A DNA stretch of 63,999 nt, the filler included, from an uncultured bacterium (lineage in GTDB: Bacteria > DAOPZR01): NCBI GenBank assembly GCA_964637655.1. It is 10 parts of 10 records of this genome, joined end to end, with 100 filler letters (N's around TTAATTAATTAA, not from the genome) between each part and the next. Parts side by side here need not be neighbours in the genome. Positions count along the whole stretch, not along the records: positions 13,149 to 19,593 come from CAZWUZ010000219.1; 9 more parts are not named here. One strand, given 5' to 3'. Under the pieces are notes generated by a model. That model made no database searches and was not told the DNA's origin. It was given only the letters and a program-made list of their open reading frames with translations. Both the position numbers and the translations under genes were made by a program. Position 1 is the stretch's first letter, and every line of letters begins with the position of its first letter. Shown in pieces: positions 13,149 through 19,593 of this stretch.

Positions 13149-13691
13149 CAGATGACCCTCATCACGCATGCGGGTGAGGAGAAGGCCTTTGCCGGCGCTA
13201 TGCCGCAGGAGTACGGCAACCCGCTGCGCCTGCGGTTGCCGCTCGACGCCGGGTGCACGGTCATCGTCGCGCATTGCGCCGCCGGCGGCGAGGGTCTCGA
13301 CTACGACCACGCCAGCGCGCCGGTAGCCAACCTCGACCTGTTCCTCCGCCTCATGGCGGAAGATAAGTATCGCGGTCGTCTGTTCGGCGACATTTCCGCG
13401 GTCACGCAACTCAACCGCGCGACGACTGCTCTGCCCGTGCTGCTGGCGCATCCCGAGCTACACGACCGCCTCATCAACGGCAGCGACTACCCGCTCCCCG
13501 CCATCGATCCGCTGCACAGCGCATACTTTCTCGCCGCGCGCGGCTACCTGGCCTGGCGCGACGCGTGGTACCTCGAGGAAATCCAGGCGCATAACCCGCT
13601 GCTCTATGATATAGTGCTCAAGCGCACACTGCGTGAACCGCGCACGGGCAATCGCTTTGCCGGCGCGGTGTTCACTGACGGAGCCCTATGA
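13149..13691 (+). CDS. Amidohydrolase-family protein (5' partial)
   Basis: THAGEE, IVAHCA, GDISA, NGSDYP metal-barrel motifs. Confidence 0.8.
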   Translation, partial: QMTLITHAGEEKAFAGAMPQEYGNPLRLRLPLDAGCTVIVAHCAAGGEGLDYDHASAPVANLDLFLRLMAEDKYRGRLFGDISAVTQLNRATTALPVLLAHPELHDRLINGSDYPLPAIDPLHSAYFLAARGYLAWRDAWYLEEIQAHNPLLYDIVLKRTLREPRTGNRFAGAVFTDGAL

Positions 13692-14383
13692 CACCGGAAG
13701 CACTGCAGGTCACCGGAGAGTCGCTGTCCGCGGCGCAACTGCTCCGTGCCGCCGCGCGCTGCTTCGACCCGGCGCGCATGGTGTTTGCCTCGAGTTTGTC
13801 GGCGGAGGACCAGGTGCTGACGTGGCTGCTTGCGACCGAGGCGCCGGCCATCCGCATCTGCACCATCGATACGGGGCGGCTCCCGGAAGAGACGCAGGCG
13901 CTGCTGGCGGCCACCACGGCGCGGTTCGGCATGCGGTACGAGGTGCTCCGTCCCGACGCACAGGCGGTGGCGGCAATGGTGGCGGAACGCGGCGAGGACC
14001 TGTTCCGGCGCAGCGTGGCGGACCGGCGGCGCTGCTGCCGCGTGCGCAAGGTGGAACCGCTGCAGCGCCATCTCGCGGGTTGCGCGGCCTGGCTTACCGG
14101 TTGCCGGCGCGGACAGTCAGCCGCGCGCGCGGCGTTGTCGAAAATCGACCGCGATCCTGTCACCGGGCTGTACAAGTTGAACCCGCTGGCGGACTGGACG
14201 GAAGCAGCGGTATGGGAAACCATACGCCGCGAGCAGATCCCGTACAACGCTTTGCATGATTGCGGCTACCGGAGCATCGGCTGCGCGCCCTGCACGCGCG
14301 CGGTCGCGCCCGGCGAGGATGTGCGGGCGGGGCGCTGGTGGTGGGAAACGGAAGGGGAGAAGGAATGCGGCCTGCACCACTGA
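13688..14383 (+). CDS. cysH: Adenosine-5'-phosphosulfate reductase (Fe-S CysH type)
   Basis: DTGRL, CC-RKVEPL, SIGCAPCTR, GRWWWE, KECGLH. Confidence 0.92.
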   Translation: MTPEALQVTGESLSAAQLLRAAARCFDPARMVFASSLSAEDQVLTWLLATEAPAIRICTIDTGRLPEETQALLAATTARFGMRYEVLRPDAQAVAAMVAERGEDLFRRSVADRRRCCRVRKVEPLQRHLAGCAAWLTGCRRGQSAARAALSKIDRDPVTGLYKLNPLADWTEAAVWETIRREQIPYNALHDCGYRSIGCAPCTRAVAPGEDVRAGRWWWETEGEKECGLHH

Positions 14384-14385
14384 CC

Positions 14386-15486
14386 ATGCCCTCGGTTTCC
14401 CGGCTGACGGTCACGCCTGCCGGTTTCCGCCGTCTGCGCCGCCGCCTCTGCGCGGAGATCTACCGTGACGACCCCGCCTACCGCGACAATAACGCCGGAC
14501 TGCTTGATGTGGTGCTCAAGGCGCGCGGTGAATTTGCGCGCGGCGCCGCGGTGACACCCGTCACCGTGCTCGACGGCGGGCGTCCGCTGGCGTCGGCACT
14601 GCTGCTGTGCGCGGAGCGCCTGCCCGGCACGCTGCAGCTCGGGTTCTTCGAGGCGGTGGCCGGCCGGCCAGACGCGGTCGACCGACTGGTCAGCGAAGCG
14701 CGCCGCGTGGCCGCGGCAGCCGGCTGCACGACAATCGTTGCCGGGATGAACGGCCACGTCAACAACGGCCTGGGCATCCTCACCGGCCCGTTCGGCACCC
14801 GCGCGAGTTTCGGCGCGGCGTACAATCCGCCCCACTACGCCGACGAACTGGCGCGTCATGCCACCCGCAGCGAAGCGCTGCTCATCTACCGGCACGCGGT
14901 GAACGATTTCCTGCAGCATATCGGCGAGGAGCGTTGCCGCACGGCCGCGCGGCGCTTCCCTGTGCGCCACGGCAAGTTCCGCGACCTGCCGTGCGAGATG
15001 GCGGTGTACACCGACCTGAACAACCGCGCGTTCGCGCAGCATCCCTACTATTTTCCGCGCACCGCGGCAGAAGACCTGGAACTGTTCCGTGCCTTCGGTC
15101 CCCTGTTGCGCGAGGAGAATTTCCTCGTGGCGGAGCATCACGGCCGGCCGGTGGGCTTTCTGCTCTGGTACCCCGACTTCAACGAATGGGTGGCCCCGGG
15201 GAAAACCGTCGGCATTGGGGCAGCGCTCCGCTACTGCGTCCTGCGCCGTCGCCCCGCCTGTCTCAAACTGGCAGAGGTCGGGGTGTTGCCGCGCTACCAG
15301 GGGACGGGCGTCATCCTCGCCCTGCTGCACCACTGTTTCACCCTGGCGCGTGGCCGCTACCGCGAGGCGGAGACCGGGTGGATACACCAGGACAATGCGC
15401 TGTCGCAGGCGCTCAATACCCGCTGGGCGGGCACGCCGGCAAAGACCTGCCGCGTCTTCCACATCGACCCGGTGGTATCGGCGTGA
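14386..15486 (+). CDS. YghO/bacterial ceramide synthase-like tandem GNAT acyltransferase
   Basis: LGFFEA, YNPPHY, GFLLWYPDFN, GVLPRYQGTG, ETGWIHQDN motif order. Confidence 0.7.
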   Translation: MPSVSRLTVTPAGFRRLRRRLCAEIYRDDPAYRDNNAGLLDVVLKARGEFARGAAVTPVTVLDGGRPLASALLLCAERLPGTLQLGFFEAVAGRPDAVDRLVSEARRVAAAAGCTTIVAGMNGHVNNGLGILTGPFGTRASFGAAYNPPHYADELARHATRSEALLIYRHAVNDFLQHIGEERCRTAARRFPVRHGKFRDLPCEMAVYTDLNNRAFAQHPYYFPRTAAEDLELFRAFGPLLREENFLVAEHHGRPVGFLLWYPDFNEWVAPGKTVGIGAALRYCVLRRRPACLKLAEVGVLPRYQGTGVILALLHHCFTLARGRYREAETGWIHQDNALSQALNTRWAGTPAKTCRVFHIDPVVSA

Positions 15487-16481
15487 CAGAGGCAGCAATC
15501 AGCGACTGCGCTGACCGCCTGCCCGACGCGTGGGATGCGGCCGCCGGCGACAATCCCTTTCTCCGGCGAAACATCCTCGCCCTGCTGGAGCAGGTCAATC
15601 CCTGCGGCCAACGCTACCATCTGGCCATCGACAGCGCCGGCATTGCCTCGGTGGCGGTAACCTACCGGCAGCGACTGAACCTGCTCACCTTCAGCCGCGG
15701 TGCGCTGCGCTGGCCCGTGCATATTGCCGGCATCCCCTGCTCGGTAAGCGTGCCGGGCGTGGCGTTGCGCTCACCGGCCGGCGCCGCCGCGCTGCTCGCC
15801 TCCCTGCGGGCGACACGCGGCCTGACGCTGGTGCTGAACATGCCGGAAGCGCCAGCACGTGACGGCATGGTCTCCGGGCAGACCCTTCCCTGCTGCCGGC
15901 TGGAGGTGCGCTGGCCTGATGTTGCCGCGTACCGTGCGGCCATGCGCAGCCATTATCGCCATACGCTCGACCGCGTGCGGCAGCACAGCGCGGCGCTGAC
16001 GGCGGAACCGCTCGCCTCCCCGGCCGGCTTCACCGACGACATGCATGCGCTCTACCTGAACGTGTTCCGGCGCTCGGCCTATCCGCTCGAATGCCTCACG
16101 CCCGTATTCTTCCGTACCTTCCCGGCGGCGATTACCGTCTTCCGCGCAGAGGCGCGCTGTGCCGGTTTTGTCCAGACCCTGCGTCATGCCGATACCCTGT
16201 ACTTCATGTTCGGCGGCGTCGATGACACTCTGCTGGCGCGCCATGACACGTACCGTTGCATGCTGCTGCACATGATTCGCACCGGCATCGAGTCGGGGTG
16301 CCGCTGGATCGATCTCGGGCAGACCGCGGAGGCGATCAAACTGAAATTCGGCTGCACGCTCGAATCGCGCTGCATGCAGGCGACACACGCCGCCCCGGCG
16401 GCGCGCTGGTTGCTGCGTCACGCGGCGGGGCTGCTCAGCTACCGGCCGCCGGAGGAGAAGTACCGTGTCTTCCGCGACTGA
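15483..16481 (+). CDS. GNAT (FemAB/Acetyltransf_6-like) protein
   Basis: GTG overlapping the upstream stop; DNPFLRR, YRAAMRSHYR, FMFGG, DLGQTAEAIKLKFG. Confidence 0.75.
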   Translation: MTEAAISDCADRLPDAWDAAAGDNPFLRRNILALLEQVNPCGQRYHLAIDSAGIASVAVTYRQRLNLLTFSRGALRWPVHIAGIPCSVSVPGVALRSPAGAAALLASLRATRGLTLVLNMPEAPARDGMVSGQTLPCCRLEVRWPDVAAYRAAMRSHYRHTLDRVRQHSAALTAEPLASPAGFTDDMHALYLNVFRRSAYPLECLTPVFFRTFPAAITVFRAEARCAGFVQTLRHADTLYFMFGGVDDTLLARHDTYRCMLLHMIRTGIESGCRWIDLGQTAEAIKLKFGCTLESRCMQATHAAPAARWLLRHAAGLLSYRPPEEKYRVFRD

Positions 16482-17799
16482 ACTGCGGGTGCTGCTGGTG
16501 CGGCCTGCCTACCGCACCCGGCTGACGCAGGCGGTGCGGCTGGTCACCGAGCCGCTTGACCTCGAGTATCTTGCTGCCATCGTGACCGCGCGCGGCTGGC
16601 ACTGGCGCATCCATGACGGCATGGTTGACAGCGAACCGTTCAGCGCAGTGCTTGCCGGGTTTGCCCCGGACATCGTCGCCCTCACGGGGTACTATCCCGC
16701 GCTGGCGGAGATGCTGCACCTTGCGGCAGCGGTGAAGGCGTGGCGCGCGTCGACCCTGGTGGTGACGGGCGGCGTGCACGCGGAGCTCTGCCCGGCAGAT
16801 TTCGCGGTGGAGGCGGTTGACGTGGTCGTGCAGGCGGGCGGGGCGCATACCTTCGGGCGGCTGCTTGACGGGTTCCGGGCAGCACGTTCCGTCACGCCCG
16901 TGCCGGGCACCTGGCAGCGCGTCAGCGGCACCTGGCGCTACGAGCCGCTCGACCCGGCAGCGACACTGCCGCCGCTGCCGCACCCTGACCGCAGCCACCT
17001 CTACCGTCACCGCGCCGCGTTCACCTACCTGCACTGCGGGCCGGTGGCGCTGGTGCGCACGGCTGCCGGCTGCCCGCACGGCTGCAGTTTCTGCTGCTGC
17101 CGCCTGCTCAATGGGGGGCGCTACGCGCCGCGTGATCTTGCGGAGGTGGCGGACGAAATCGCCGCGCTCGATGCTCCCCTGATCTGGCTTATCGACGACA
17201 CGCTGCTTGCCGATCCCGGGCGCGCGGCGGCACTCGCGGATGCGCTGGCGCAGCGACAGGGACAGCGGCGATTCATCATCTACGCGCGCGCTGCGGATAT
17301 CGCCGGCAACCCCGGGGTGTGCGCCGACTTGCGGCGGCTCGGGGTGAGCGATGTGATTGTCGGCATGGAGGCGGTGGAACAGGCGCAACTGGACGGCTAT
17401 GCCAAGGGCTGCAGTGCGGATGACAACCGCCGTTGTGCGGAACTGCTTGCCGCAGCGGGGATCGCCTGCACGGGCCTGTTCATCGCCGACCCGTCATTCA
17501 GCCGCGCTGATTTTCGCCGGCTCGATGCTACAATCGCGTCGCTGCCGCTGGCCGCGGCGACGGTGTCGATCTACACCCCGTTTCCCGGTACGGCCGGGTG
17601 GGAGACGGCACAGGCACGGCTGACCACCCGCGATTGCCGGTACTGGGACCTCTGCCATCTGGTGCTCGACCCGCAGCGTATGTCGCGCAGCGAATTCTAC
17701 CTGCGTTTTGCCTGGTCGAATATCCGCCCGCTGCTGCACCGTCCGGCGCTGCGGCGTCATGTGCTCGGGCAACTGCGGCGCGGAGGATGGCGATTATGA
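16465..17799 (+). CDS. B12-binding radical SAM protein (HpnR-like)
   Basis: EPLDLEYLAA, GGVHA, GCPHGCSFC, IDDT, GME, TPFPGT, WDLCHLV. Confidence 0.88.
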   Translation: MSSATELRVLLVRPAYRTRLTQAVRLVTEPLDLEYLAAIVTARGWHWRIHDGMVDSEPFSAVLAGFAPDIVALTGYYPALAEMLHLAAAVKAWRASTLVVTGGVHAELCPADFAVEAVDVVVQAGGAHTFGRLLDGFRAARSVTPVPGTWQRVSGTWRYEPLDPAATLPPLPHPDRSHLYRHRAAFTYLHCGPVALVRTAAGCPHGCSFCCCRLLNGGRYAPRDLAEVADEIAALDAPLIWLIDDTLLADPGRAAALADALAQRQGQRRFIIYARAADIAGNPGVCADLRRLGVSDVIVGMEAVEQAQLDGYAKGCSADDNRRCAELLAAAGIACTGLFIADPSFSRADFRRLDATIASLPLAAATVSIYTPFPGTAGWETAQARLTTRDCRYWDLCHLVLDPQRMSRSEFYLRFAWSNIRPLLHRPALRRHVLGQLRRGGWRL

Positions 17800-18419
17800 A
17801 CCGCGCGCAGCTCTGGGATTTCTGGGCGGCGCATTACGACCGGCTGTGGGTGCAGCGTGTGTCGGTCGCTCCGACGCGACGCGCACTTATGGCGGAACTG
17901 GACGGGCTGGCGCCGGGGCGGCTGCTCGATGCGGGCTGCGGTACCGCGCAGCTGCTCGACGCACTGCAGTGTACCGGGACGCAGTGGGACTACACCGGGT
18001 TTGATGCGTCAGCGGCGATGCTGGCGCAGGCCGCGCGCAAGCATCCGGCAGCGAACCTCGTGCATGCAGGCATCATGGCGTACGCCGCGCCGGCACCGTT
18101 CGACGTGGTGATCTGTGCCCATGCCTTCCCGTATTTCACAGATCAACCGGCGGCGCTGGCGCGTCTCGCCGGATGGGTCAAACCCGGCGGGCACCTGCTG
18201 CTGGCGCAGGCCTGCACCGAGAATGCCTATGACCGGGTGGTGCTTGCCGGCGTCAAACTGACCACGTCGCCCGCGCGCTATCGCAGCGTGGCTGACCTGA
18301 GTGCGCTGGCCGCCCCGCTGCTGGGGCAGCCGCGCCGGGTCATTCGCCTCAACCGTCATCCCGGCGTCCCCTCGCTGCGCCTGCTGGTGTGGCGGAAGCA
18401 GGAGGGGAGCAGCACATGA
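17796..18419 (+). CDS. Class I SAM-dependent methyltransferase
   Basis: LLDAGCGT, FDVVIC, VKPGG; ATGA overlaps on both sides. Confidence 0.88.
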   Translation: MNRAQLWDFWAAHYDRLWVQRVSVAPTRRALMAELDGLAPGRLLDAGCGTAQLLDALQCTGTQWDYTGFDASAAMLAQAARKHPAANLVHAGIMAYAAPAPFDVVICAHAFPYFTDQPAALARLAGWVKPGGHLLLAQACTENAYDRVVLAGVKLTTSPARYRSVADLSALAAPLLGQPRRVIRLNRHPGVPSLRLLVWRKQEGSST

Positions 18420-19593
18420 AGATACTGTTGCTGCGTCCGCGCCCTGACGACGCAACCATCGGGCTGCAGCACCTGATGATCTGCGAGCCGCTCGAATTAG
18501 AGTACCTCGCTGCTGCCGTTGCTGACCTCGGGCATGACGTGGCCATCGTCGACATGATCCTCGAGCGGGAGCCGGTCGAGCACTTCCTTATGCTGCACCG
18601 TCCCGACCTGCTCGGAGTCACCGCGTATATCGCGCATGTAGCGGTCGTGCTTGCGTACTGCCGCGCGGCGAAGCGGCTGCTTCCCGGCTGCTGCACAGTG
18701 ATTGGCGGCGTGCATGCCGAGGTGGTGCCGGAAGATTTTCGCGATGATGCGGTGGACTGCATCGTGTACCGCAACCCGCTGACGACCTTCCGGGTACTGG
18801 TCAGCCGTCTCGCTGCCGTCGCACCGGTCGCGGACCTGCCCGGGCTGTGGCGTCCGGACGCTGTTCACGTCACCCGGGAAACGGTCTTTTCCCACCCGCA
18901 TCCCGCGCGCCATCTTGTCGCGCGCTACCGCGCCCGCGATTACTACCTCTTCCACAACCCGTGCGCCCGCATCAAGACCTCGTTCGGTTGTCCGTACACC
19001 TGCGCGTTCTGTTTCTGCCGGGAAATCACCGGCGGCACTTATTACGAGCGCGCCCTCGATGACGTTATCACCGAACTGGCCGCCATCCCCGAGCGCGAGA
19101 TCTACATCGTCGACGACAATTTCCTCGTGTCACGCGAACGCGTGCTGGCGTTCTGCGCGGCGGTGCGGGAGGCGGGCATCGACAAGCGCTACCTCATCTA
19201 CGGGCGCGCCGATTTCATCGCGGCCAACGAAGACGTGATCGCTGAGTTCCGGCGGGTCGGGCTGCGGGCGGTCATCGTCGGGCTCGAATCCTGCCGCCCG
19301 GAGGAACTGGCGCAGTTCAACAAGCGCAGCGATGTCGCGGCCAATGAGGCGGCGGTGCGCATTCTCGCGCTGCATGGGGTGGACTGCTATGCCACCCTCA
19401 TCCTCGGGCGGGACTGGGGGCGTGACGATTTTGCCCGGCTCGGTCGCTGGCTGCGCGGGCTCGGCCTCATCTATGTCAACCTGCAGCCCTTCACGCCGCT
19501 GCCGGGCACAGAACTGTTCGCGGCGCATCGCGAGCAACTCTGCGTTCCGCGCCGCGAGTTCGCCTGCTGGGATCTCGCACATTTGGTGGTCAC
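18416..19593 (+). CDS. B12-binding radical SAM protein (HpnR-like), 3' partial
   Basis: EPLELEYLAA, GGVHA, GCPYTCAFC, DDNF, GLES, TPLPGT, WDLAHLV. Confidence 0.9.

Follow-up and report, generated by a model that had tools for sequence, protein, structure and literature searches.

Which product is made by an operon that places two GNAT-fold transferases next to a series of B12-binding radical S-adenosylmethionine (SAM) enzymes? This question is raised by positions 13149-19593 of the stretch of DNA analysed here, a window of 63,999 bases from an uncultured bacterium (genome G000). An original prediction, made from the sequence, had taken the seven genes of this span for a lipid pathway in which an amino-lipid or a sphingoid base is N-acylated and then methylated or cyclised at two positions. 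We found that only five of the seven genes (g3-g7) form a conserved unit. Our preferred reading, to which we give about an even chance, is an orphan pathway in which an N-acyl (aminoacyl) amine or lipid would be built and its carbons would then be modified by the B12-binding radical SAM enzymes (B12-rSAMs). The cassette is best read as encoding a pathway to neither ceramides nor hopanoids.

The window consists of contigs of about 6.4 kb each, lined up with paired 44-N spacers between them. The span coincides exactly with one of these contigs (G000:C219, 6,445 bp) and the cluster is for this reason cut at both ends, as had been predicted. The source genome comprises 3.99 Mb in 485 contigs (65.5% G+C, completeness 90.55%, contamination 3.64%). 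Seven genes, all on the + strand and translationally coupled, were read by translation of the span:

g1: 13149 (5' end cut) to 13691, + strand, 180-aa C-terminal fragment, amidohydrolase-related
g2 (cysH): 13688 to 14383, + strand, thioredoxin-dependent reductase of adenosine 5'-phosphosulfate (APS) or 3'-phosphoadenosine 5'-phosphosulfate (PAPS), with a CC...CxxC motif
g3: 14386 to 15486, + strand, 366-aa tandem-GNAT N-acyltransferase
g4: 15483 to 16481, + strand, 332-aa Acetyltransf_6 tandem GNAT of Fem/MprF type
g5 (rA): 16465 to 17799, + strand, 444-aa B12-rSAM, accessory orthogroup
g6: 17796 to 18419, + strand, 207-aa class I SAM methyltransferase, accessory
g7 (rB): 18416 to 19593 (3' end cut), + strand, B12-rSAM, core orthogroup

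This reading bears out the predicted series of co-oriented genes with overlapping stop and start codons or a 2-nt spacing. ATGA overlaps are present at g1/g2, g5/g6 and g6/g7, a GTGA overlap at g3/g4 and a 2-nt spacer at g2/g3, while g4 and g5 overlap by 17 nt, provided that the GTG at 16465 is the start codon. Pfam families were assigned to g2 (PAPS_reduct), g3 (Acetyltransf_1, a weak match of 31 bits), g4 (Acetyltransf_6), g6 (class I methyltransferase domains), and g5 and g7 (each with B12-binding, PF02310, and Radical_SAM, PF04055).

Extent and distribution of the cassette

To delimit the unit, a profile of g3 relatives was run over contigs of one genome per species. It gave 138 species-level matches, from which 80 loci were fetched and searched by tblastn with the seven window proteins. 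The g4 gene adjoins g3 in 78 of the 80 loci; one of the two misses lies on a contig cut 25 bp after g3 (L027) and the other is without g4 (L069). At least one B12-rSAM is found on the same strand in 69 loci. Among the 11 loci without a full rSAM match, 10 end 1-362 bp after g4 and the remaining one (L015) runs 1,018 bp on; in L015 and L077, a partial rSAM is already visible in the remaining DNA. The loci without an rSAM are cut by a contig end; wherever enough sequence remains, a B12-rSAM is found. This g3-g4-rSAM arrangement is far beyond chance. The methyltransferase g6 was detected in 38 loci, always just upstream of rB.

We also clustered the 1,142 open reading frames (ORFs) of at least 60 aa from the 80 loci. 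The core set consists of g3, g4, rB and a further B12-rSAM, rD; another one (rE), rA, additional rSAM paralogues and the class I methyltransferase occur in only part of the cassettes. The smallest sets, found in Cloacimonadota and Myxococcota, contain g3 (at times duplicated), g4, rB and rD only, while those of Lachnospiraceae have up to five rSAMs. Overall, cassettes count 4-9 genes and two to six B12-rSAMs, so that modification at two positions, as first proposed, was an understatement.

In G000, the cassette runs on outside the window, in contigs C423 and C276, as found by tblastn with the proteins of relatives and by inspection of C423. Contig C423 opens on the final ~57 codons of g7, with ~9 codons missing between the two contigs (by comparison with P0051, a protein 86% identical to g7). 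It continues with rD, 65-68% identical to the rD of loci L002 and L018, and with the N-terminal part of rE (59-62% identical), the C-terminus of which lies at the end of C276. The reconstructed order in G000 is g3-g4-rA(g5)-methyltransferase(g6)-rB(g7)-rD-rE. The twin rSAMs described as flanking a methyltransferase are present in the window, but they are not the total, since the genome holds four cassette rSAMs.

The 80 loci belong to at least 10 phyla: Bacillota (49 loci), Thermodesulfobacteriota (8, including Candidatus Electrothrix and Desulfopila), Myxococcota (5), Lentisphaerota (3), Melainabacteria (3), Cloacimonadota (3), Kiritimatiellota (2), Pseudomonadota (2), Verrucomicrobiota (1) and Armatimonadota (1), with 3 unassigned. 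Across these phyla the order g3-g4-rSAM-(methyltransferase)-rSAM is kept, and the gene order is indeed conserved elsewhere. Four loci were annotated in full, and their flanks beyond the cassette share nothing. Among 41 genomes of relatives of the source organism, g3 was found in one, which is G000 itself; its family was represented by a single further genome, which lacks g3. The cassette is a patchily distributed, self-contained unit of anaerobes that has spread horizontally. Cultured carriers include Clostridium tunisiense, C. punense, Ruminiclostridium hungatei, Lawsonibacter faecis, Lachnospiraceae bacterium G41 and Desulfopila sp. IMCC35008. In C. tunisiense TJ (L022) the cassette comprises g4, g3, rA, the methyltransferase, rB, rE and rD, and in R. 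hungatei DSM 14427 (L066) a PLP decarboxylase, g3, g4, rB, rD and one additional rSAM. As the cassette is compact and present in cultured strains, its product can be looked for directly by expression or knockout.

NCBIfam (June 2026) has no model of g3, of g4 or of the rSAMs in the cassette. A full-text literature search, with paywalled papers and supplements outside its reach, returned no description of the combination, and the cassette is missing from the accessible text of a 2026 review on radical SAM enzymes that modify lipids (PMC13459092). The kinds of enzyme are known; the new element, for which we found no description, is their combination, with a ceramide-synthase-like sister GNAT, a Fem-like transferase and two to six B12-rSAMs in one operon.

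Enzymes of the cassette

The g3 protein carries an RxxGxG CoA/pantetheine motif (RYQGTG). Its family profile aligns with Escherichia coli YghO over 347 columns (hhalign probability 98.6%, E 1.4e-15), and the two proteins share 22% identity by BLASTP (E 2e-6). The AlphaFold2 (AF2) model of g3 (pLDDT 90.7) is a tandem GNAT. Its closest structure is the acyl-CoA-using MAB_4324 (Z 24.2, root mean square deviation (rmsd) 3.1, 298 residues aligned; VIA), followed by a glucosamine N-acetyltransferase (Z 21.8) and MshD (Z 21.4), with aminoacyl-tRNA enzymes at 15.7 (VIA). The best match of the g3 profile in a sequence search of the PDB reached only E 0.017. Over 1.84 billion representatives, this profile gave 202 matches at E ≤ 1e-30 and 1,706 at E ≤ 1e-10. 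A metagenome scan gave no close relatives of g3, and nine at 25-28% identity that were usable as an outgroup; inspection of their neighbourhoods revealed neither g4 nor rSAM. Fused g3-like forms were also seen: a double GNAT (P0273, 784 aa), one with an N-terminal 4Fe-4S ferredoxin (P0245, 530 aa) and one with PilZ (P0302, 503 aa).

GNATs encoded in metagenome contigs between genes similar to serine palmitoyltransferase (Spt) and CerR are 25-26% identical to g3. In locus L087 a Spt-like gene is followed by the GNAT, and in L089 the order is LpxB, GNAT and epimerase. The contexts of L087-L090 match the arrangement of Spt, bCerS (the ceramide synthase of bacteria) and CerR in bacterial sphingolipid synthesis, as given in the accessible text of PMC11334938. 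In L088 (638-7351) and L090, we observed a Spt-like alpha-oxoamine synthase, the GNAT, a CerR-like NAD-epimerase, a CDP-alcohol phosphatidyltransferase and an MMPL protein, an operon that resembles a full gene set for making and exporting a phosphosphingolipid.

A quick IQ-TREE search on 53 g3-related rows, in which the long-branch row L091 was kept, separated two clades. The first (15 rows, SH-aLRT 97) contains YghO, L087, L088/L090, L089 and P0043-P0050; the second (36 rows, SH-aLRT 95) is the rSAM-linked g3 family. By descent and fold, g3 is ceramide-synthase-like, yet it belongs to a sister family with its own invariant gene context. Its prediction as a GNAT of the YghO family thus stands as far as full-length homology to YghO is concerned, but g3 lies outside the clade of YghO and the Spt-CerR GNATs, an outcome that the original prediction had listed as refuting it. 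As in GNATs of the YghO/bCerS type, the architecture is a tandem GNAT of ~360-400 aa, homologous over the full length, and a thioester-driven N-acylation of an amine is presumably common to all of them. Unlike these GNATs, g3 is paired with the Fem-like g4 and with B12-rSAMs, and is never beside Spt (0 of 80 loci). The original prediction places YghO and bCerS in one family, and the tree is consistent with it. The label 'bCerS type' is used here by gene context. A family assignment of Caulobacter bCerS (CCNA_01212) is not given in the accessible text of PMC11334938, PMC11087976, PMC9393093 and PMC10865984.

The g4 gene had been listed beside g3 as a second GNAT. Its AF2 model (pLDDT 95.2) is a soluble tandem GNAT over all 332 aa. 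The best structural matches are the aminoacyl-tRNA-dependent peptide synthases Sba18/Sbb17 (Z 21.2, rmsd 3.1, 264 residues aligned; VIA), followed by FemX (Z 19.2), FemA (18.7) and the synthase domains of MprF, A-PGS and L-PGS (~17; MprF/A-PGS 17.2), whereas tandem GNATs using acyl-CoA reach Z 16.4 at best. Foldseek ranks them in the same order (E 1e-11). Modelling thus points away from a second acyl-CoA acyltransferase, and g4 is probably an aminoacyl-tRNA-dependent aminoacyl transferase. It shares the tandem-GNAT fold with Fem, MprF and Sbb17/Sba18, and the latter form an amide on the amine of a small molecule, the same step as would be proposed for g4. Unlike Fem and MprF, g4 has no FemAB or DUF2156 match, and its sequence identity to Fem/MprF/Sbb17-type proteins in the structural alignments is 9-17%. 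In Pfam it matches Acetyltransf_6 (PF13480) only, with 38.3 bits, and in NCBIfam no model at all. A PDB sequence search returned nothing for g4 as a single sequence and E ≥ 0.48 for its profile. Its neighbour clusters in the atlas are annotated PF13480, some of them also FemAB_like or FemAB. The one argument that g3 and g4 may bind each other is a naturally fused protein of 718 aa, P0176, in which the C-terminal half shares 34% identity with g4 (E 2e-42). Longer fused forms of g4 were not found at E ≤ 1e-10, in a search that also missed this known fusion.

The two rSAMs of the window, g5 and g7, are paralogous as predicted (34% identity, E 1e-57), and the quoted motifs EPLxLEYLAA and WDLxHLV are present in both. 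Each retains an intact CxxxCxxC motif (CPHGCSFC and CPYTCAFC). In a FastTree phylogeny of 91 rSAMs, SH-like support delimits the orthogroups rD (22 rows, support 100), rB (25 rows, 98), rE (14 rows, 100) and an rA superclade (28 rows, 99). HpnR (TIGR04367) is the best NCBIfam model for rA, rB and rE, with 113-183 bits against a cut-off of 650 (g5 174.4 bits, g7 183.2 bits), and none of five carrier genomes contains a match above this cut-off. Two true HpnR proteins (893 and 899 bits), obtained from 2 of 301 genomes of one phylum, are 27-29% identical to g5 and g7 and fall outside the clade of rA, rB and rE (35 rows, SH-aLRT 95), in a tree where long branches meet at the join of HpnR and rD. 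The resemblance to HpnR that had been noticed is therefore real at the level of the best model, but does not extend to membership of the HpnR clade.

The rD orthogroup is far more distant, with weak best matches to PhpK-type, HpnJ, BchE and ladderane-type models; the BchE and HpnJ models, which stand for other chemistry, also score on cassette rSAMs. Against PDB sequences, g5 matches TokK (E 7e-5). The relatives of rB, 50-86% identical and of ~455 aa, form a large, well-conserved family whose members have generic names or the automatic JGI name 'hopanoid C-3 methylase'. Like HpnR, HpnP and Gmm, the cassette enzymes combine an N-terminal B12-binding domain with a radical SAM core carrying CxxxCxxC, and probably share their mechanism; unlike HpnR, the paralogues rA, rB and rE occur in one operon together with the very distant rD, and no squalene-hopene cyclase was found in five carrier genomes. 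According to the accessible text of the review (PMC13459092), lipid-modifying radical SAM enzymes comprise Tes, Mss, Gms, GrsA/B, Gmm, Cds, HpnH/J/P/R, Jaw5 and the ladderane enzymes, and methylation by B12-rSAMs such as Gmm and HpnR follows a two-SAM route through methylcobalamin and a 5'-deoxyadenosyl radical.

For g6, the best NCBIfam matches (BioC, CpaM and Tam) are weak. With PADLOC, g6 matched no more than a generic methyltransferase (mad2), and two rSAM matches were weak (E 9e-6 and 4e-5). G000 also contains dozens more B12-binding radical SAM genes, with tblastn matches on more than 30 contigs outside C219 (e.g. C6, C16, C39, C54, C73, C100, C180, C184 and C368), and a first look with the HpnR model gave 50 candidates, five of them at E ≤ 1e-30.

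Three alternative modules are found directly upstream of g3 in other cassettes. The first is an AMP-forming ligase (AMP-ligase), present in 24 loci, with an acyl carrier protein (ACP) of 72-87 aa between ligase and g3 in 23 of them; its best NCBIfam matches are fatty-acid-CoA ligases, and three representative carrier proteins were confirmed as PP-binding. The second is a LysA-like pyridoxal phosphate (PLP) decarboxylase, which clustering identified in 12 loci and which follows g4 in 3 further Gastranaerophilales loci (158-201 bits on the lysA model, below the cut-off of 298). The third is a pyruvoyl enzyme similar to S-adenosylmethionine decarboxylase (AdoMetDC), in 6 loci (50-62 bits, below the cut-off of 75.65); no such gene was found in G000 by tblastn at E ≤ 1e-6. 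In 3 loci g3 has an arginase-family gene as its neighbour, and in 3 loci the cassette is followed by a gene for DegV, a fatty-acid-binding family. Occasional extras are a thioesterase with a phosphopantetheinyl transferase (PPTase), AsnB, an LplA-like ligase, and an ABC ATPase with a CobW-like GTPase.

Two observations concern the same region. In six loci of rumen Lachnospiraceae (L045, L046, L049 and L052-L054), 16 ORFs of 610-730 aa with a TIR_2 domain form tandem paralogues directly upstream of the cassette, with four in a row over ~8 kb upstream of the AMP-ligase in L054 (L054:290-8103). In a Bacilli metagenome-assembled genome (L065:3802-4467), a 150-aa ORF between AMP-ligase/ACP and g3 resembles, by eye, a phosphopantetheinyl transferase; of the five HpnR-like rSAMs in this cassette, three are recent duplicates.

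By their content, these cassettes resemble the exosortase-A-associated set (TIGR03098/TIGR03099/TIGR03019): an acyl-CoA ligase, a PLP decarboxylase, an ACP and a FemAB-like protein. Both combine an AMP-ligase, a carrier protein, a LysA-like decarboxylase and a Fem-like GNAT. The cassette decarboxylases score 104-113 bits on TIGR03099, far below its cut-off of 478. Unlike this set, the annotated flanks of the cassette contain no exosortase or PEP-CTERM genes and g4 matches no NCBIfam model; the exosortase-A-associated system is not known to contain B12-rSAMs.

Possible products of the cassette

In the pathway that we favour, the amine acceptor would come from general metabolism or from the cassette's own LysA-like PLP or AdoMetDC-like decarboxylase. 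The g4 enzyme would move an amino acid from aminoacyl-tRNA onto the amine (or a hydroxyl) of this acceptor, and g3 would N-acylate the free amine from acyl-CoA or acyl-ACP, the acyl group being supplied in Lachnospiraceae-type cassettes by the dedicated AMP-ligase and ACP. Then, rB and rD, together with rA, rE and further paralogues where present, would modify unactivated carbons in succession (two to six enzymes), most likely by methylation via methylcobalamin and a 5'-deoxyadenosyl radical, while g6 would add a heteroatom (O- or N-) methyl group. Within this reading, we lean slightly towards a lipid-like rather than a soluble product. A lipid or acyl character is suggested by the homology of g3 to GNATs of Spt/CerR context, by ligase and ACP in 23 loci, and by the DegV, thioesterase or PPTase genes of some.

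Several points weigh against this pathway, which we infer from gene content, sequence and models. The order of g4 before g3, the acceptor, the acyl chain length and the chemistry of the rSAMs are presumed in the proposal. The cassette of the window has none of the three upstream modules, so that acceptor and acyl donor are guesses, and these modules are chemically non-equivalent. For g4, no match was obtained to Pfam FemAB (PF02388), LPG_synthase_C (PF09924) or DUF2156. Fold similarity among tandem GNATs is generic, with Z still ~15 at rank 50; the call between aminoacyl-tRNA and acyl-CoA therefore depends on a gap of ~5 Z, which is itself one between predicted models and solved structures. 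B12-rSAMs also perform cyclisations, ring contractions and other reactions, and methylation by the cassette is therefore presumed. The trees come from quick IQ-TREE or FastTree searches with no bootstraps, and the g3 of L034 is unresolved at the base of its tree. Finally, the cassette has no conserved transporter or membrane protein at its side that would decide between a lipid and a soluble product.

The rival that survives best, a minority possibility in our view, is a soluble metabolite: a short-chain N-acetyl or aminoacyl derivative of a diamine or polyamine (of putrescine, cadaverine or agmatine type), C-methylated by the B12-rSAMs. It would agree with the decarboxylases near g3, of LysA/ornithine/arginine type (12+3 loci) or AdoMetDC type (6 loci), and with the arginase-family genes (3 loci). 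The closest solved structures of g3 are acetyltransferases of small amines and amino sugars, the best match of g4 (Sba18/Sbb17) aminoacylates the amine of an amino sugar, and the lack of a conserved membrane protein fits as well. On the other hand, 24 loci have an AMP-ligase similar to fatty-acid-CoA ligases, together with ACP, the nearest sequence relatives of g3 include GNATs of sphingolipid-type clusters, 3 cassettes are followed by DegV, and no exporter is conserved.

There is only a slim chance that the cassette modifies the cell envelope. In that case g4 would resemble FemX, with a peptidoglycan precursor as its substrate, or MprF, with a lipid headgroup, and the new amine would be capped by g3. 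The structural neighbours of g4 (FemX/FemA at Z 18.4-19.2, MprF-type synthases at Z ~17) would suit this role, and the LysA-like decarboxylases belong to a family acting on diaminopimelate. Yet g4 is without the membrane domain of MprF, mur, fem and envelope genes are not conserved beside the cassette, and the carrier phyla include both monoderm and diderm ones. Two to six B12-rSAMs have no known precedent in the synthesis of cell-wall precursors.

A ceramide or sphingolipid-like pathway, in which g3 N-acylates a sphingoid base that the rSAMs methylate or cyclise, is very improbable. It could draw on the full-length homology of g3 to YghO and to the GNATs flanked by Spt and CerR, and on the ACP and ACP-synthetase which the Caulobacter sphingolipid locus also holds (accessible text of PMC9393093) and which resemble the ligase and ACP pair of Lachnospiraceae type. 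However, g3 forms a clade apart from those GNATs, and the nine distant relatives, the Spt/CerR-context GNATs included, are without g4 or rSAM nearby. No Spt-like gene was found in any of the 80 loci, and a CerR-like short-chain dehydrogenase/reductase in only one. Furthermore, the five carrier genomes have at most one alpha-oxoamine synthase each: that of G000 passes the BioF cut-off (457.7 bits), while Lachnospiraceae G41 lacks such an enzyme. The search for serine palmitoyltransferase thus yielded nothing beyond a single BioF-type enzyme in these five genomes, and the sphingoid-base pathway first envisaged was not confirmed.

It is barely credible that the rSAMs C-methylate a ribosomally synthesised and post-translationally modified peptide capped by the GNATs: multiple B12-rSAM C-methyltransferase paralogues do occur in proteusin and bottromycin pathways, and the models ApyD and rSAM_ocin_1 give weak NCBIfam matches, but the window genes overlap or lie 2 nt apart and so leave no space for a precursor gene, ACP is the sole conserved small ORF in the clustered set (ORFs of at least 60 aa), and protease, leader-recognition and exporter genes are not conserved. 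Next to no chance is left for C-methylation of hopanoids or other polycyclic triterpenoids by HpnR-type enzymes: HpnR is the best model for g5, g7 and their orthologues and lends its function to the JGI name of some relatives, but the low scores and the position of true HpnR given above speak against it, and squalene-hopene cyclase (TIGR01507), for which a check had been suggested, was found in none of the five carrier genomes at E ≤ 0.001, G000 (90.55% complete) included.

The orphan pathway of acylation and carbon modification can also be put in a bolder form, which we think rather unlikely: an undescribed membrane lipid of strict anaerobes, an N-acyl-aminoacyl amine or 'pseudo-ceramide' bearing two to six methyl branches introduced by B12-rSAMs. 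In this doubtful scenario, g3 would share a common ancestor with ceramide synthase and the rSAMs would play an HpnR/HpnP-like role. The makers of such a lipid, a list that we offer with equal reserve, would include gut and rumen Lachnospiraceae, cable bacteria, Cloacimonadota and Planctomycetota-Verrucomicrobiota-Chlamydiota (PVC) bacteria. If it were true, the 'pseudo-ceramide' could lie behind some of the multiply branched lipid biomarkers that anoxic sediments contain and that have no assigned source. More generally, a function would be assigned to many B12-rSAMs that are now automatically labelled 'hopanoid C-3 methylase' in hopanoid-free organisms, and the cassette may represent new C-methylation chemistry in gut and sediment anaerobes.

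Genes around the cassette

The first two genes of the span, g1 and cysH, were found by tblastn in none of the 80 related loci; they are therefore neighbours only, not members of the cassette. The cysH product (g2) exceeds the cut-off of NF002537 (242.5 bits, cut-off 154) and falls slightly below that of TIGR02055 APS_reductase (229.1 bits, cut-off 235.3), and tblastn of the genome found it as the sole copy in G000. As a neighbour with a housekeeping role, it is translationally coupled at this site by chance. The APS reductase, which had been counted as a pathway member, was also considered as a sulfur feeder of the pathway, a role that we rejected on its single genomic copy and its absence from related loci.

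No Pfam or NCBIfam family matched g1, which an atlas feature search linked to amidohydrolase-related clusters at 0.97. The Amidohydro_2 family comprises many metal-dependent decarboxylases, and g1 may be a candidate non-homologous stand-in for the decarboxylase found upstream of g3 in other cassettes; yet g1 itself is carried by none of the 80 loci.

In a search of sequencing runs, no RNA run was among the carriers, and six DNA runs carry 7-36% of the sampled words. Neither of two ORFs on the flanking contigs, both read by translation only, is linked to the cassette. At the end of the preceding contig (window 10671-13025, - strand), a 784-aa ORF reads like a pyridine-nucleotide oxidoreductase fused to a part similar to dihydroorotate or dihydropyrimidine dehydrogenase, with 4Fe-4S motifs, and the start of the following contig (window 19831-20484, - strand) encodes an apparent N-terminus of CTP synthase.

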